From: Ostreococcus lucimarinus
Taxonomy: Eukaryota
Assembly: GCA_000092065.1 (NCBI GenBank)
Contig: CP000583.1
DNA length: 64,000 nt
Direction: 5' to 3' (one strand)
Shown here: piece by piece, positions 2,531-56,832 of the stretch
How the letters are laid out: the number at the start of each line of letters is the position of its first letter
Numbering within the stretch: the stretch's first letter is position 1
Position numbers and translations under genes: made by a program
The notes under the pieces: generated by a model
What the model was told of the DNA's origin: nothing
Seen by the model: only the letters and a program-made list of their open reading frames with translations
Database searches by the model: none

Positions 2531-3244
2531 CTATGACCAACTTCTCGTCTTCGCGTGCACGCGAGCCACATCCGTCATGTAATCCCCGCTCAATCGAGCG
2601 TACGCCGTGCGATTCGCGCGCTCGATCTCTCGTCGAGCGCGCTCCTCGTCACCATTAATCTCATAAAATAACCCCAAATATAACGCGCTATAAAACTCAT
2701 CGCTCGCGTTCGAGCGTCCGGCTTCGCGCAGGCGCGTCGCCGCCTCTTCCGATCCCTCCGCGAACAGCGCGAAAACGCTCGACATCACCGGTCTCGAATC
2801 CCGACCGGTGATCAACATATTTTCTCTCGCGTACGCGATCCCTTTCTCCGGATCCATCGCCTCCGAGGCGAAGCACCACACGCTCTCCTCCGTATCGTTC
2901 GGGTTCTGCGCCACGTCCAGTCGAAACTGCTTCGCCGCCTCCTCGTACGCCCCCGCGTAGTACAGCGCCAGCCCGCGCTGCCACATGTACGCGCTAAACC
3001 TCTCATCGCTCGCGATGGCGTCGTCGAACGCGTCGATCGCGCCTCTGACGTCGCCTCTGATAAACTCCCTCGCGCCGCGCTTGATCTTTTCGCTCGCCAC
3101 CGATGCGTTCGCTCGCTCCGCGCGCGCGCACGTCGCCACGATCGCCGCCGCGACGCCGCGCAGAGCGTCGCGACGATTCGTTCGTCGTCTCGCGTCGCGC
3201 GTCGCGCACGCACGCGGCGCGCGCGCGCCGCGAGCGGCGGACAT
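2531..3244 (-). CDS. Small TPR-repeat protein with an Arg/Ala-rich N-terminal presequence (possibly organelle-targeted)
   Basis: A 237-aa ORF has a true ATG at 3244. It contains TPR-like helical repeats (YMWQRGLALYYAGAYEEAAKQF…, FYSALYLGLFYEINGDEERARREIERA). Convergent AT-rich 3' ends with the helicase gene. Confidence 0.55.
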   Translation of the reverse strand: MSAARGARAPRACATRDARRRTNRRDALRGVAAAIVATCARAERANASVASEKIKRGAREFIRGDVRGAIDAFDDAIASDERFSAYMWQRGLALYYAGAYEEAAKQFRLDVAQNPNDTEESVWCFASEAMDPEKGIAYARENMLITGRDSRPVMSSVFALFAEGSEEAATRLREAGRSNASDEFYSALYLGLFYEINGDEERARREIERANRTAYARLSGDYMTDVARVHAKTRSWS

Positions 3245-27746: not shown

Positions 27747-28469
27747 CGCCGCACTACGCGCGCTTCACCGCCGATGACGCGGCCAAGCCGCTCGCGCGTC
27801 GCGGAACGCCGCGATTCGTGACGCGATTCATCCGCGCGCGTCCTCGCGCGTTCGATGCCCGACGACGTCGTCGTCGCGCGCGCGCGATGTCCCGCGCGCG
27901 CGCTCGCGCTGACGGCGACGATCACCGCGCGCGGCGCGCGCGCGACGATCGAGGTCGCGCGCGAGGCGCGGTCGCGTCGCGTCGCTTTCGCGCGCGGTCT
28001 CGCGGTGGCGACGCTGACGCGCGTCGCGCTGGCGCTGACGCGCGCGCGCGCGCGCGACGCGTGGCTCGCGAGCGCGATGGCGTGCGCGATGGCGACGCGC
28101 GCGATGGGACGCGCGCGCGCGGTGGCGCGGGCGACGATGGATCGAGCGTTGGGCGCGCGGTGCGCGGACGGGACGGCGGTGCCGCGCGAGGACGCGCGCG
28201 GGTTCGAAGTCGCGGAGAGGCTGAGCGCGACGGACGCGTGGTATCAGGTGGTGTGCGCGAGGGGGGGTGGGAGAGGACGCGTGGACGTCCTGGGAGGGAC
28301 GCGGTGCTCGGGAGAGATGGCGCGGGTGGTGATGGCGACGGCGCGGCGGTGCTTCGAAGACGGTTAGGGGATGGATTGAAAAAATCGTAGATTCGGCGGG
28401 GACGGGGGTTTTAATGATGGATGGATAGATGGACTGGCTAGATCTAGGAGAGGGAGGATGAATCGTTCG

Positions 28470-30239: not shown

Positions 30240-33200
30240 TCAAAATCCTTTGGCGGCGCGAGAACGCGGGAGGATGTCGCCTCGACCGCGCTTGAGCCAT
30301 AGGTTGATGGAGGCGCGGTGCGCGCGCGTGACGTATTTCAAAACCTCGTCGATGAAGATGACGGGAATGGAGAACCAAAACACCGCGCGCCACTCTTCGT
30401 AGTTGAGCGCGGTGATGGTGAACGTCTTCGCGAAGGATGGGACGTACATGATGATGAAATGGAGCCACATGCTGATGACGATGGAGACGAGCAACCAGAC
30501 ATTCGTCGTCGGCGGGTGGGAGAATAACGATTTGTTCTCGCTCAGTGAGTTCAACGCGTTGAACATTTCGATCAATACTAGGGTCGACATCGCCATCGTG
30601 CTCGGTCGACGATCTTTGAAGGATTCACACGCGTCTCCGATGCATCGCGAGGCGCTCGTGAGCTCTGCCCACGTCATTTGCGGGCCGCCGGGGTACGACA
30701 TAAACCACCATCCGAACGACCCAACGGTCGCTATGCCGACGTAAACGCCGATAATGAGGTACCGAATCAGTAACCATCGATCAACGATCTGCTCACGCGG
30801 ACTCCGAGGTCGTTGACGCATGATGTCACCATCCGCGCGGTTGAAACCAAGCGCGGTGGCGGGTAATCCGTCGGTGACGAGATTAACCCACAAAAGTTGC
30901 ACCGGAACGAGCGTCTCCGGGAACCCAAGGGCGGCGGCGATAAAAATACACACCACTTCGCCGATATTTGAGCTCACCATGTAGCGAATAAATTGCTTCG
31001 TATTGTTGTAGATTGCGCGACCCTCCGCGACGGCTTCGACGATGGTGCTAAAGTTATCGTCTGCGAGCACCATATCGGCGGCGCCTTTGGCAACCGCGGT
31101 ACCGCTTCCCATGGCAATCCCGATGTCCGCGCATTTGAGTGCCGGAGCATCATTCACACCATCGCCCGTCATCGCGACGATGTTGTCCTGCCGCTTCAAA
31201 ATCTCGACGAGCTTGCTCTTTTGCGCGGGCTCGACGCGAGAAAAGACGCACATCGTCCGCGCCGCTTCTTCGCGCTGCTCGATCGTCATCGCCTCAAACT
31301 CCACACCGGTGAAAGATTTTCCCTTGAAACTATTTTGAGTTGAACCACCCGTCAAAGGATCGATCGAGTTGCTCAAGCCAATCTGCGATGCGATGGCTTC
31401 TGCGGTTTGTTGGTTGTCGCCGGTGACCATGATGACGCGAATACCCGCGTCTTTGCACGTTTGTAACGAATAACGCACCTCCGGGCGCGGTGGATCAATC
31501 ATTCCAACAAGACCAATGAATGTGAGATTGTTTTCGTCCGTCTCAGAGCACGTCGTTACGCCTCGACCCATGGGGCGCATCGCGAGCGCCAACACGCGTA
31601 GGGCGTCATTGGCGTAGCCTCGCATTTGCTCCGCCACTTGTTCGCGAACTTGATCCGTCATTCTTTCCGCTCGGCCGTTGCGATTAGACATAACCGACGT
31701 GCAAAGTGACAGAACACTCTCCGGTGCACCTTTGACGAATAGAATGGATTCATCATTTCGAGAGCATAGCGTTGACATGCGCTTGCGTTCGCTCGTAAAC
31801 TCCGCCGTCGCGAGCTTTGTAAATTCCGAATCCCAATATTGTGTGCTATGCATGTCCTGGTCGCTCTGAGCTCGCCCGAGTATTCCGGAATCCGAAGGTA
31901 GTCCAATCTTTTCCGTGAGCACGCGAAGAGCAATCTCTGTCGCTTCTCCAATCTTCTCAAAAGATCCCTTTTCCTTGTCGAAATTCAGCGTGGAATCGTT
32001 GCACATCGAACAGCACATGGCAACATAAGCCACCGCCGCGGCGTCGGCTGGTTCGTGCACGACCAAGCCGCGAGAGTCTAAAATTTCCCCATTCTGTGCG
32101 TAAGCCTCGCCGCGAATACCGTAGTTGGTAACTTCTGCGGTGCTCGAATTTTCGATGACGCACATGCGCATCACAGTCATGACGTTGCACGTCAGCGTAC
32201 CCGTTTTATCGCTACAAATAACCGAAGTGCACCCCAAGGTCTCCACGCTAGGAAGCGTTCGCACGAGAGCGTTCTTTTTCGCCATGCGACGCGTGCCGAG
32301 GGCGAGACACGTGGTGACGACGGCGGGTAAGCCTTCGGGAATCGCGGCCACGGCAAGCGCGACGGCAATCTTAAAGTAATAAACCGCACCTCGCAGCAAT
32401 CCTCCGTGCGCCTTGTCGGCAAAGTGTCCAATGTTCACCACCCACACTAAAATACAAATTACCGCGATGATTTTCCCGAGCAAGTTCCCGAATTCGTCCA
32501 ATTTCTTCTTCAGCGGCGTCAATTCCTCCTCCGTCTGCTCGAGCGTGTGTTGAATCTTCCCCATGGCTGTGTTACTACCCGTACCGACCACCACGCACGT
32601 AGCCTTACCCACGGTCACCGTGGTCCCACTGTACACCATGCACGTCTTGTCTTGCAGCACGCACTCGCCGAGATGTTCCACCGCCCGTTCCGTCTTCGCC
32701 ACGCTTCCGCTCTCCCCCGTCAACAGCGCCTGATCGCACCGCAGGACGTTGGAGTGAATCTTAACCAATCGGCAATCCGCGGGCACCTTTTCTCCCGTCG
32801 CAATCTCCACGATGTCTCCGGGCACGAGCGCCTCCGCGTTCACCTTGCGTTTCTCGCCGTCGCGCGTGCACGTGGCGACGTCCGCCTCGTACTTTTTCAA
32901 TTCCTCAATCGCGCGCTCCGCGTTCTTCTCCGTCGCCACTCCCACCGCGGCGTTCGCGATTAATATCGCCACGATCACTCCCGGTTCCAGGAACGCCTCC
33001 GAGCCACCCTCACCGTCCCACAGCGCGAGCGCCAACGACACGAACGCCGCGAGCAACAGCACCTTCACCATCGTGTCGTCGAATTGCTTAATCACCAACG
33101 ACGCGAACGACGTCTCCCGCTGCGCCGGCAGCGCGTTCGCCCCGCACGCATCTCTCCGTCGCTGCACGTCCGCGCGATCGAGCCCGTGCGCGAGATCGAG

Positions 33201-33317
33201 GACGCCCAACCGCGCCAAGGTTTCAGTCGCGCTCAATCGATGCGCGTCTTCCGCGTGTCTTCGCCACGCCGTCGCCGCCGCCGCGCTCTCGGGATTGACA
33301 TCGCGCGCGTGAGGCAT
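30240..33317 (-). CDS. SERCA-type P-type Ca2+-ATPase (type IIA)
   Basis: Motifs ICSDKTGTLT, KGAPE and TGDGVNDAPALK and 10 TM segments are present. The sequence aligns over its full length with SERCA. ATG at 33317. Confidence 0.9.
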   Translation of the reverse strand: MPHARDVNPESAAAATAWRRHAEDAHRLSATETLARLGVLDLAHGLDRADVQRRRDACGANALPAQRETSFASLVIKQFDDTMVKVLLLAAFVSLALALWDGEGGSEAFLEPGVIVAILIANAAVGVATEKNAERAIEELKKYEADVATCTRDGEKRKVNAEALVPGDIVEIATGEKVPADCRLVKIHSNVLRCDQALLTGESGSVAKTERAVEHLGECVLQDKTCMVYSGTTVTVGKATCVVVGTGSNTAMGKIQHTLEQTEEELTPLKKKLDEFGNLLGKIIAVICILVWVVNIGHFADKAHGGLLRGAVYYFKIAVALAVAAIPEGLPAVVTTCLALGTRRMAKKNALVRTLPSVETLGCTSVICSDKTGTLTCNVMTVMRMCVIENSSTAEVTNYGIRGEAYAQNGEILDSRGLVVHEPADAAAVAYVAMCCSMCNDSTLNFDKEKGSFEKIGEATEIALRVLTEKIGLPSDSGILGRAQSDQDMHSTQYWDSEFTKLATAEFTSERKRMSTLCSRNDESILFVKGAPESVLSLCTSVMSNRNGRAERMTDQVREQVAEQMRGYANDALRVLALAMRPMGRGVTTCSETDENNLTFIGLVGMIDPPRPEVRYSLQTCKDAGIRVIMVTGDNQQTAEAIASQIGLSNSIDPLTGGSTQNSFKGKSFTGVEFEAMTIEQREEAARTMCVFSRVEPAQKSKLVEILKRQDNIVAMTGDGVNDAPALKCADIGIAMGSGTAVAKGAADMVLADDNFSTIVEAVAEGRAIYNNTKQFIRYMVSSNIGEVVCIFIAAALGFPETLVPVQLLWVNLVTDGLPATALGFNRADGDIMRQRPRSPREQIVDRWLLIRYLIIGVYVGIATVGSFGWWFMSYPGGPQMTWAELTSASRCIGDACESFKDRRPSTMAMSTLVLIEMFNALNSLSENKSLFSHPPTTNVWLLVSIVISMWLHFIIMYVPSFAKTFTITALNYEEWRAVFWFSIPVIFIDEVLKYVTRAHRASINLWLKRGRGDILPRSRAAKGF

Positions 33318-33459
33318 GCTTTCGCGACGCGCGGTCGGCGCGACGCGCGCTCGAGCGACGCGCGCGCGTCGTCGTTCGCGGATAAGCGTCGCCGGGTGTC
33401 CCGTCCAGCCGAACGTTCGGGACGCCCGACCGCAGTGTTCGCCGCGCGCGACGACCGCG

Positions 33460-34047
33460 ATGCCGTCCTCGACGTCCCGCGCGCTCGTCGCGGCGTCCGG
33501 AATCGTTCTGGCGATCGTCGCGAGCGATATCTACGGCGCGTACGCGTCCACGGCGACGGAGACGGCGCCGTCCGAGACGTTTCGCGCGATGTCCCGAGGC
33601 GCCGGGAAAGTCGTCGTCGGGTTTTGCACCTCGTGATCTTACCGCGGCGGGTTCAACCAGCTCGCGCGCGCGATCGAAAATGAATTCGGGATGGCCACGA
33701 CCGGTGGGCACTGGCCGCCGAGCGCGACGGCGGTGGCGCTCGGTCGAGCGTTCTCGTGGGTGCAAATCGCGCTCTGGACGGCTACGTTTTTCGGCGAGCG
33801 GGCGGCGACGCGCGTCTTCGGCGAGAGCGCGGTCGTCCCGGCGTGGTTGAAGTCGATGAGCGAGAATAAGTTTCAAACCGCCATCATGACTTTTTGGGTG
33901 TTCAACATCGTGAGCGCGAACGTGTTGAACACCGGGGCGTTTGAGGTGTTTTACGACGGCGAGCTCGTGTCTTCAAAGTTGCAGAGCGGGAAATTGCCGA
34001 GGGTCGATACGATATTCGAAGGGATTCGCGCGATTCAGGGGAAGTAG
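33460..34047 (+). CDS. Selenoprotein T (SelT, Rdx family) with in-frame Sec-UGA at 33634-33636
   Basis: A signal peptide MPSSTSRALVAASGIVLAIVASDIYGAYA is present. The motif …VVVGFCTS-U-SYRGG… places UGA inside the CxxU redox motif. The downstream ORF is in the same frame and aligns to the SelT C-terminal domain (…NTGAFEVFYDGELVSSKLQSGKLPRVDTIFEGI…). The ORF track splits the gene at the UGA. Confidence 0.8.
33634..33636 (+). other. UGA selenocysteine codon of SelT
   Basis: An in-frame TGA separates two same-frame ORFs at the CTSU motif. Confidence 0.75.
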
Positions 34048-34251
34048 TGTCATCGCATGGAACGATGAGATGCGATGCTCGTCGTGGTTAGCGATGCGAT
34101 GGGCGCGCGGGATGAAACGAACGGTGACGACGCGCGCGGAAAACTCGGTCGAAGAAATCGGCCAGTCGCGCGCGTTTGACTTCTTCGGTTCGTCCACGCG
34201 CTTCGCTCGTCGTCGTCGTCTGGAAGATGAATCAATATATCATCATCATGT

Positions 34252-34310
34252 AATAAAAACTAACGTAGTTCTCTCGCGCGAATAAAACTAACGTAGTTCT
34301 CTCGTGCGAG
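34252..34310. repeat. Tandem duplication of about 29 bp (AATAAAA(A)CTAACGTAGTTCTCTCG[C/T]GCGA) in a convergent 3' UTR region
   Basis: Read directly from the sequence between the SelT stop (34047) and the LHC stop (34431). It contains AATAAA-like motifs. Confidence 0.7.
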
Positions 34311-34430
34311 TCGAAGACCGACCGCGGGGCGATGATGGGCGACGTCGACGGCGCTCGCGCGGCGCGTTCGTCGCTCAAATTTTATATAACGACCTTGCCG
34401 TCGAAAATTACAACGCTAAACCGTAAGTGA

Positions 34431-35401: not shown

Positions 35402-35712
35402 CGCGTTCGTCGGGTGTTCGCGCGCGAGAATTTACGCGTTCACGGGTCCGTCGTCGTCGACGGGTGCGCGCGGCTCGTGCGAGGCGCGGGCGTGTGAAGA
35501 CGCGCGCGCGTCCGCGCGCGGCGCGCGCCAATCCGCGCGCGCGATCCGTCGCGATGGATGGGCCGCGTTCGCGTTTGATCGCCTTCGCGCGCGCTCGAAT
35601 ACGGGGGATTCGAATACGCGCGCGGCTGAGTGTCCGTGTGTGAGACGCACCACGATTGAGACGCCGCGCGGCATCGCGACCGCGGACCGCGACGCCGTCG
35701 CGGCGCGGCGCG

Positions 35713-56288: not shown

Positions 56289-56355
56289 ATCGTAGTCGTA
56301 GCGTTTGTGCGTCGGATAGAGAGTACAGTAGTGTATAACGCGAGACGACGACGAA

Positions 56356-56832
56356 TTAGACGTTGGTGTCGTCGCCCGTCGTCTTCGCGTCGTCGTCGTC
56401 GCCCGCCTCGCGCAGCGTCACCACGCACGTCACCGCATCGCGCGCGCGCGCGTCGTCACCGTTCTCGATCGTCTCGTCGTCGTCGTCGTCGTCGTCGTCG
56501 CGCGTCTCGATCGCGATCATCACCTCGCCTCCCGGCATCGCGAACGCCGCGCATCGCCCCCTCCACGCCTCGTGCGCGCGTTCCTTCTCCTCCAGCGCCC
56601 TTCGCCGCGCCTCCGCCGCCGCGCGCGCCTCCATCGCCGCCGCGCGCGTTTTCGCGCGCTTCACTCGGCACAGGCACACCAGCATCCACGCCACGACCGC
56701 CATCAGCGCGGCGGCGACGACGAACAGCATCGCCCCGCCGTCGTCGTCGCGCGGCGGCGACCGCGCGACCGCGTCCGCGCGCGTCGCGTTCGCGCTCGAC
56801 GCGCGCGGCGCGTCGACGACGCTCGTCGACAT
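56356..56832 (-). CDS. Hypothetical single-pass membrane protein with acidic C-terminal tail
   Basis: A TM segment MLFVVAAALMAVVAWMLVCLC, a coiled-coil-like region and a D8 tract are present. No family was recognised. Confidence 0.25.
   Translation of the reverse strand: MSTSVVDAPRASSANATRADAVARSPPRDDDGGAMLFVVAAALMAVVAWMLVCLCRVKRAKTRAAAMEARAAAEARRRALEEKERAHEAWRGRCAAFAMPGGEVMIAIETRDDDDDDDDETIENGDDARARDAVTCVVTLREAGDDDDAKTTGDDTNV

Follow-up and report, generated by a model that had tools for sequence, protein, structure and literature searches.

The subject of this work is a gene within a 64,000-nucleotide stretch of Ostreococcus lucimarinus DNA (GenBank assembly GCA_000092065.1, contig CP000583.1), called the window below, in which position 1 is the first letter. 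From the sequence we conclude with high confidence that positions 33460-34047 encode selenoprotein T (SelT, SELENOT), a protein of 195 residues with a predicted Cys56-x-x-Sec59 centre, and that an in-frame UGA would be read as selenocysteine (Sec) through a type II selenocysteine insertion sequence (SECIS) at 34098-34211. A preliminary description of the window, made from its letters, had proposed a eukaryotic SelT gene split by a Sec-UGA, and this proposal holds up against profile matches that lie above their cut-offs and against a published SelT sequence that carries U at this place.

The window contains two open reading frames (ORFs) in the same frame, 33316-33636 and 33691-34047, with the TGA at 33634-33636 between them. 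That such a TGA falls inside a C-T-S-U motif had already been pointed out in the preliminary description, and translation of the window bore it out: the conceptual translation around the TGA is ...GKVVVGFCTS*SYRGGFNQLARAIENEFGMATTGG..., and the readthrough product with Sec is ...GKVVVGFCTS-U-SYRGGFNQLARAIENEFGMATTGGHWPP.... The upstream ATG at 33316 was considered as a start and rejected, because it overlaps the start codon of a divergent Ca-ATPase gene and because the stretch it would add is Arg-rich and of low complexity; the true start is almost certainly ATG 33460. The coding features, with the evidence for each, are as follows.

33460-34047, plus strand: SelT coding sequence without introns, with 195 codons, of which codon 59 is Sec, then a TAG stop at 34045-34047 (translation; matches to Pfam Rdx and TIGR02174; alignment without gaps to SelT homologues of full length).
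33478-33534, plus strand: N-terminal hydrophobic segment (RALVAASGIVLAIVASDIY), residues ~7-25 (Kyte-Doolittle means over 15 residues of 1.3-2.4; equivalent hydrophobic N-termini in orthologs).
33625-33636, plus strand: redox motif Cys-Thr-Ser-Sec (TGC ACC TCG TGA), which aligns with CxxC or CxxW (a miscalled TGA) of SelT homologues (also ortholog loci).
33634-33636, plus strand: in-frame UGA, predicted to be read as Sec, residue 59 (translation; homologue alignment; ortholog loci; coding constraint; U in the published alignment).

For the profile searches, Sec was replaced by Cys in the 195-residue query that begins at ATG 33460. The joined protein matched Pfam Rdx (PF10262) over residues 50-190 with E=2.3e-12 and 47.3 bits (cut-off 22.6), and NCBIfam TIGR02174, CXXU_selWTH, the SelT/SelW/SelH family, with 52.6 bits (cut-off 34.2). 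Since the Rdx profile has 74 positions spread over residues 50-190, an insertion of ~67 residues is implied. Hydropathy of the product peaks at residues 7-25, 91-111 and 138-156, and the last two stretches represent the insertion by which the Rdx core is divided in SelT proteins. The first had been called a signal peptide in the preliminary description; the hydrophobic segment is indeed present, and it may be a signal peptide or a membrane anchor.

An exhaustive HMMER search, with the part downstream of the TGA as query, returned 538 relatives. A word-indexed protein search gave the truncated ORF only, and the exhaustive search of representatives was needed to find SelT homologues. Alignment of the conceptual translation to the SelT family had been proposed as a check, and the result agrees with a selenoprotein: the joined protein aligns without gaps to full-length SelT homologues, at identities of about 26-36%, the TGA column is occupied by Cys (CxxC forms) or by 'W' in 10 aligned homologues, and the flanking motif F/Y-C-x-S-[U/C]-x-Y-[RK] is common to them. 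Full-length SelT metagenome proteins with 'W' at the Sec position are P0006, P0021, P0035, P0108 and P0131 (for example FCNSWQYRGGF); in these entries the 'W' is most likely a TGA read as Trp by gene callers, so that they would be hidden selenoproteins. The sole solved relative found by sequence was the Rdx-family protein C17orf37 (2ljk, E=6.8e-6). The window protein resembles vertebrate SELENOT and the Rdx family (SelT/SelW/SelH) in having CxxU at the same alignment column, the C-terminal signature TGAFE...SK...P and an Rdx core with a hydrophobic insertion; it differs from them by a shorter N-terminal region and by a GUGA, not AUGA, SECIS core.

The same gene is found in the literature. In O. 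lucimarinus 29 selenoproteins were counted, SelT included (Lobanov et al. 2007, Genome Biol 8:R198, PMC2375036), and in supplement file 2 of that paper the O. lucimarinus SelT row reads, in machine-read text, STATETAPSETFRAMSRGAG--KVV.GFC.TSUSYRGGFNQ... and ...MSENKFQTAIMTFWVFNIVSANVLNTGAFEV...SSKLQSGKLPRVDTIFEGIRA. Apart from noise of optical character recognition, the window protein is identical to this row and has U at the TGA, the residue numbering of the paper being offset by +13 relative to the start at 33460; similarly, an ortholog locus (L002) matches the O. tauri SelT row. Published 75Se labelling was done in O. tauri. Nothing substantive differs between the gene and SECIS described here and those published for O. 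lucimarinus and O. tauri. It is clear that this is the already published O. lucimarinus SelT; since gene and Sec codon are in the 2007 paper, as is the SECIS style, there is no novelty in them and little new biology is added.

The public protein models are shorter than the published protein. The downstream 118-residue ORF (window 33691-34044, residues 78-195) is 100% identical to XP_001416767.1/ABO95060.1, a 'predicted protein' of O. lucimarinus CCE9901 for which the UniRef name is A4RV21 'Selenoprotein T'. This entry begins at the internal Met78, so that the first 77 residues, with the hydrophobic segment and the Cys-x-x-Sec centre among them, are missing, a truncation caused by the in-frame UGA.

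Conservation of the TGA was examined in 67 ortholog loci from a metagenome scan (designated L), about 60 of which were translated across the motif. C-x-x-TGA, in the form of CTS, CQS, CTK or CMS followed by TGA, is present in all but one of the translated loci; in L062, the single exception, no motif could be read upstream of the match. A nearly identical strain (L001, 99% DNA identity) retains the TGA, as do the syntenic O. tauri locus (L002-L005) and L006, and the codon recurs in assemblies of this species that were made independently (L001, L007-L014) and in Micromonas-like, Bathycoccus-like and non-green algal loci. Over the 16 codons that follow the TGA, seven Ostreococcus-type sequences show 58, 35 and 138 differences at codon positions 1, 2 and 3, respectively, and this third-position-dominated divergence indicates a translated sequence under purifying selection. 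The 18 codons from the TGA to ATG 33691 are among the best conserved of the protein (SYRGGF.QL.RA.E.EF), and ATG 33691 itself is absent from O. tauri (GVPVIGG; ...EFVGVPVIGGHW... there) and from other orthologs. These results show that coding constraint continues across the UGA.

Two features of individual orthologs were also observed. The SelT ortholog in L053-L055 (match 1201-1786, motif C-T-K-TGA) has an intron of roughly 190 nt, the frame breaking after ...AIAATF and resuming at ...AENKLQSAGAAFFLGNTLSQNLLNTGAFEV, unlike the Ostreococcus SelT genes, which are intronless. The stop codon of O. tauri SelT is itself a TGA (L002 2840-2842), 63 nt upstream of its SECIS core, where O. lucimarinus has TAG; this terminal UGA is presumably too near the SECIS for recoding.

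The preliminary description had expected a SECIS in the 3' untranslated region (3' UTR) and regarded the lack of any SECIS-like structure there, together with transcript evidence of termination at the TGA or a differently spliced Cys-containing paralogue, as fatal to its reading; a complete type II element was located at 34098-34211. It had also listed ATGA tetramers at about 34066, 34112 and 34227 as possible cores. The tetramers exist, at 34064, 34112 and 34227, and none of them is the SECIS core. The element had been missed because ATGA cores alone were sought, the true core being GTGA at 34124-34127. Its parts, as given by folding and pattern scans, are listed below.

34098-34211, plus strand: complete type II SECIS (unconstrained and constrained folds, strict-pattern scan).
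34098-34121 with 34184-34211, plus strand: helix I, 22 bp in four segments.
34124-34128, plus strand: 5' core G-U-G-A-C, with G (not A) before the quartet UGA; GUGA is 34124-34127 (pattern scans, fold).
34129-34138, plus strand: helix II 5' strand (GACGCGCGCG), which pairs with 34167-34176 over 10 bp, with a possible 11th G-U pair 34139/34166.
34139-34143, plus strand: unpaired G-AAAA bulge with the conserved SECIS adenosines, the first A lying 12 nt after the A of the core UGA.
34143-34166, plus strand: long mini-stem of 9 bp (34143-34145/34164-34166 and 34147-34152/34158-34163), with C34146 bulged.
34153-34157, plus strand: apical loop AGAAA (constrained fold).
34167-34176, plus strand: helix II 3' strand (CGCGCGCGUU) (constrained fold).
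34177-34180, plus strand: 3' core U-G-A-C; UGA is 34177-34179, and its GA would form tandem sheared G.A pairs with the 5' UGA.

GUGA 34124-34127 and UGA 34177-34179 directly flank helix II, as a quartet-forming core requires, and the internal loops below the core have 2-3 nt on the 5' side and 4 nt on the 3' side. Counted from the TAG stop the core is 76 nt downstream, counted from the UGA 487 nt, and a conserved TGTAA follows it. In an unconstrained fold, the 121 nt at 34095-34215 reach -68.2 kcal/mol (z=-5.58), a stability attained by none of 200 shuffles. A loose pattern scan, for NTGA with a directly adjacent helix, unpaired AA after the helix and a 3' GA, placed a candidate at GTGA 34124 with GA 34178. 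With a strict pattern ([AG]TGA, a perfect helix II of >=9 bp, AA), GTGA 34124 was the sole match on both strands of the window (128 kb), where first-order Markov simulations gave an expected mean of 0.25 per window.

Compared with the canonical type II SECIS (AUGA...AA...GA; Rfam, SECISearch3), the element has the same helix I, internal loop, UGA/GA quartet, helix II of ~10-11 bp, unpaired adenosines 12 nt from the core, extra mini-stem and location in the 3' UTR. It differs in the base before the quartet, in an unusually long mini-stem of 9 bp, in a very G+C-rich helix II and in going unscored by Rfam. The base 5' of the quartet is G34124 instead of the canonical A of AUGA, which is a documented Ostreococcus variant: the quartet is preceded by G in place of A in every O. 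lucimarinus SECIS element but one, the mini-stem is typically long, and SelT is the illustrated example (PMC2375036). By comparison with the text of that paper, both published Ostreococcus hallmarks, the unpaired G before the quartet and the long mini-stem, are present here.

The element was then compared among 26 distinct orthologous 3' regions, in which some elements were found by scan and some by inspection. With the quartet constrained, a SECIS-shaped element of the same architecture is present in all 26, 57-170 nt past the stop. The 3' GA is at the same place in every one of them, AAA or AA stands at the equivalent bulge position, and the mini-stem is formed in every ortholog although its sequences are unrelated between lineages. 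The core is GUGA in 18 of the 19 green-lineage (GTGA-group) sequences, L035 having AUGA, and AUGA in the 7 loci of other algae. Since mini-stem length varies, MAFFT alignments of the SECIS (A4, A5) put the 3' GA in the wrong place, and a quartet-anchored gap-free count and a model-fitted alignment were used in their stead. In the gap-free count, 81% of the cells of helix II form standard pairs, a share that falls to 33-50% if the 3' strand is shifted by 1-2 nt; G-C, C-G, U-A and A-U replace one another at several positions, and the sequences that fall out of register carry bulges of a single nucleotide.

Three sequences (window, O. tauri and L015) served to build a covariance model, R1. It recovers the expected site in independent orthologs (L026, E=1.4e-9; L019, 2.5e-9; L027, 5.9e-7; L025, 5.7e-6), with weaker scores for L021, L016 and L053, the SECIS of the last lying at 1941-2031. 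In a 10-sequence alignment fitted to R1, which makes its pair counts lean towards the structure, 92% of cells are paired, against 23-55% when slid, and 13 of 18 pairs have changed on both sides, a result that no shuffle out of 500 reaches; for helix II, 97% of cells are paired and 6 of 11 pairs have changed on both sides. The SECIS is conserved in the orthologs, with compensatory changes.

Some observations weigh against this assignment. Rfam gave no SECIS match at E<=10, either for the region or for the isolated 141-nt element; neither tRNA(Sec) nor the Sec machinery is encoded in the 64-kb window; the first quartet pair would be U.C, not the commoner U.U; and the leaning of the fitted pair counts has been mentioned. 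As to Rfam, the same search also misses the canonical AUGA-type SelT SECIS of 8 other algal loci, and because these control elements are missed too, the negative result carries little weight and is no evidence that a SECIS is absent.

Were translation to end at the TGA, two products would come from the locus, a short N-terminal peptide and, separately, a 118-residue protein starting at ATG 33691. This is the current GenBank/RefSeq model, XP_001416767.1 being exactly that ORF, which prokaryote-style gene callers also put out. Against it, the 18 then untranslated codons from the TGA to the ATG show strong conservation at the protein level, with divergence biased to third positions, and the ATG is missing from O. 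tauri and other orthologs. Both the CxxU centre and the Rdx fold's first beta-alpha unit would be missing from the shortened product. Moreover, a conserved SECIS lies downstream, and the published selenoproteome gives this gene with U. Taken together, we consider termination at the TGA very improbable. Still less credence can be given to the idea that the TGA stands for a Cys codon (TGC/TGT) altered by a sequencing error or by a mutation that made the gene a pseudogene: it is one base away from such a codon, and many SelT homologues elsewhere have Cys, but the same TGA recurs in dozens of independent assemblies and lineages, always with a downstream SECIS, and the many independent assemblies have already effectively refuted this explanation.

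The remaining alternative concerns which core would serve the Sec codon, since AUGA is the commonest eukaryotic core and the ATGA at 34112 lies inside the same hairpin as GTGA 34124. The pattern scan, with its demand for a 3' GA and for a neighbouring helix II with AA after it, rejects all three ATGAs. Those at 34064 and 34227 are outside the SECIS element; the one at 34112 is paired with UCGUCC 34190-34195 in helix I, and O. tauri does not share it, having AAATACGAG there. GTGA, followed by a helix of 10-12 bp and AAA, is in contrast kept across orthologs, and G is the base at this core position in all but one O. lucimarinus SECIS (PMC2375036). It is hence hardly conceivable that 34064, 34112 or 34227 is the functional core.

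With GUGA 34124-34127 as the core, expression of this SelT gene can be pictured as follows. The UGA at 33634-33636 would be decoded as Sec because the 3' UTR carries the type II SECIS at 34098-34211, which would permit this reading. By the standard eukaryotic pathway, SBP2 would bind the kink-turn core, in which GUGA is paired with UGA, and would recruit eEFSec with Sec-tRNA(Sec) to the ribosome where it pauses on the UGA. The product would be a thioredoxin-like oxidoreductase associated with membranes; its function and its localisation to the endoplasmic reticulum membrane are those expected from established knowledge of SelT.

A hairpin of the Sec-redefinition type following the UGA (33625-33700) was also considered and rejected, with z=+0.53, an unfavourable covariation term and only 1 compensatory pair. 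A search for a second SECIS or selenoprotein in the window with the loose pattern and R1 gave 27747-27840 (minus strand), 35478-35596 (plus strand) and 56338-56404 (minus strand), at 12-18 bits and E of 0.015-1. These three weak sites are G+C-rich, fail the strict pattern and have no UGA-interrupted ORF upstream, and we judged them to be chance matches; the first lies between a PIG-A-like glycosyltransferase gene and an emp24-like gene. Scanned as a whole with Rfam, the window showed no family at gathering score and no tRNA. ARAGORN reported a 94-nt 'tRNA-???' at 3122-3215 on the minus strand, with a four-base anticodon (aacg) and no Rfam support, which is probably a false positive.

Past the SECIS, one more feature belongs to the SelT transcript.

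34249-34253, plus strand: TGTAA, probable poly(A) signal of the SelT mRNA, 71 nt past the SECIS 3' GA.

UGUAA is the poly(A) signal of green algae. The motif occurs 40-80 nt past the SECIS 3' GA in the window and in 9 of 9 other Ostreococcus/Bathycoccus-type orthologs, and by its position it is likely to be the SelT poly(A) signal. The convergent light-harvesting complex (LHC) gene has its own minus-strand TGTAA, at 34412-34408, 19 nt past its stop. The preliminary description had the 3' UTR shared with the LHC gene; a separate TGTAA for each gene instead suggests separate, non-overlapping 3' ends, so that the SelT and LHC 3' UTRs probably do not overlap.

In the spacer, a direct repeat of 26-28 nt (AAAACTAACGTAGTTCTCTCG[C/T]GCGA) occupies 34256-34281 and 34284-34309, just past the putative SelT poly(A) signal. 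The same-species metagenome locus L007 apparently has one copy, and L001 has both plus one extra A; the difference is a small copy-number polymorphism of the convergent intergenic spacer. An 11-bp indel (CGGCGCTCGCG) at window 34350-34360 was observed in comparison with the 99%-identical strain L001, likewise between the SelT and LHC 3' ends.

The genes around SelT are, in order, a P-type Ca-ATPase at 30240-33317 (minus strand), SelT at 33460-34047 (plus strand), the LHC chlorophyll a/b-binding protein from 34431 to about 35030 (minus strand) and a gene with a Rubisco-LSMT-substrate-binding domain (plus strand). This four-gene order is kept in O. lucimarinus, O. tauri and other Ostreococcus-type contigs, the Ca-ATPase (minus), SelT (plus), LHC (minus) part of it being found in L001, in O. 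tauri (L002-L005) and in L006. Only 142 bp separate the start codons of Ca-ATPase and SelT, a spacing that points to one bidirectional promoter for both genes.

The practical value of these results lies in annotation: the RefSeq, GenBank and UniProt entries hold a fragment of 118 residues, where the correct protein has 195, with Sec at 59. When SECIS elements are sought in Ostreococcus and its relatives, GUGA cores and long mini-stems must be admitted. Whether the SelT SECIS elements of prasinophytes (Mamiellophyceae) form a coherent sub-class unseen by general libraries like Rfam, with C/A-GACG after the GUGA, a helix II rich in G+C and a mini-stem that is long and variable, is a question on which we are evenly divided. 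If they do, a dedicated covariance model, for example R1, might recover unannotated selenoprotein genes in the genomes and metagenomes of picoeukaryotes, where public models, like XP_001416767.1, are cut off at the UGA.

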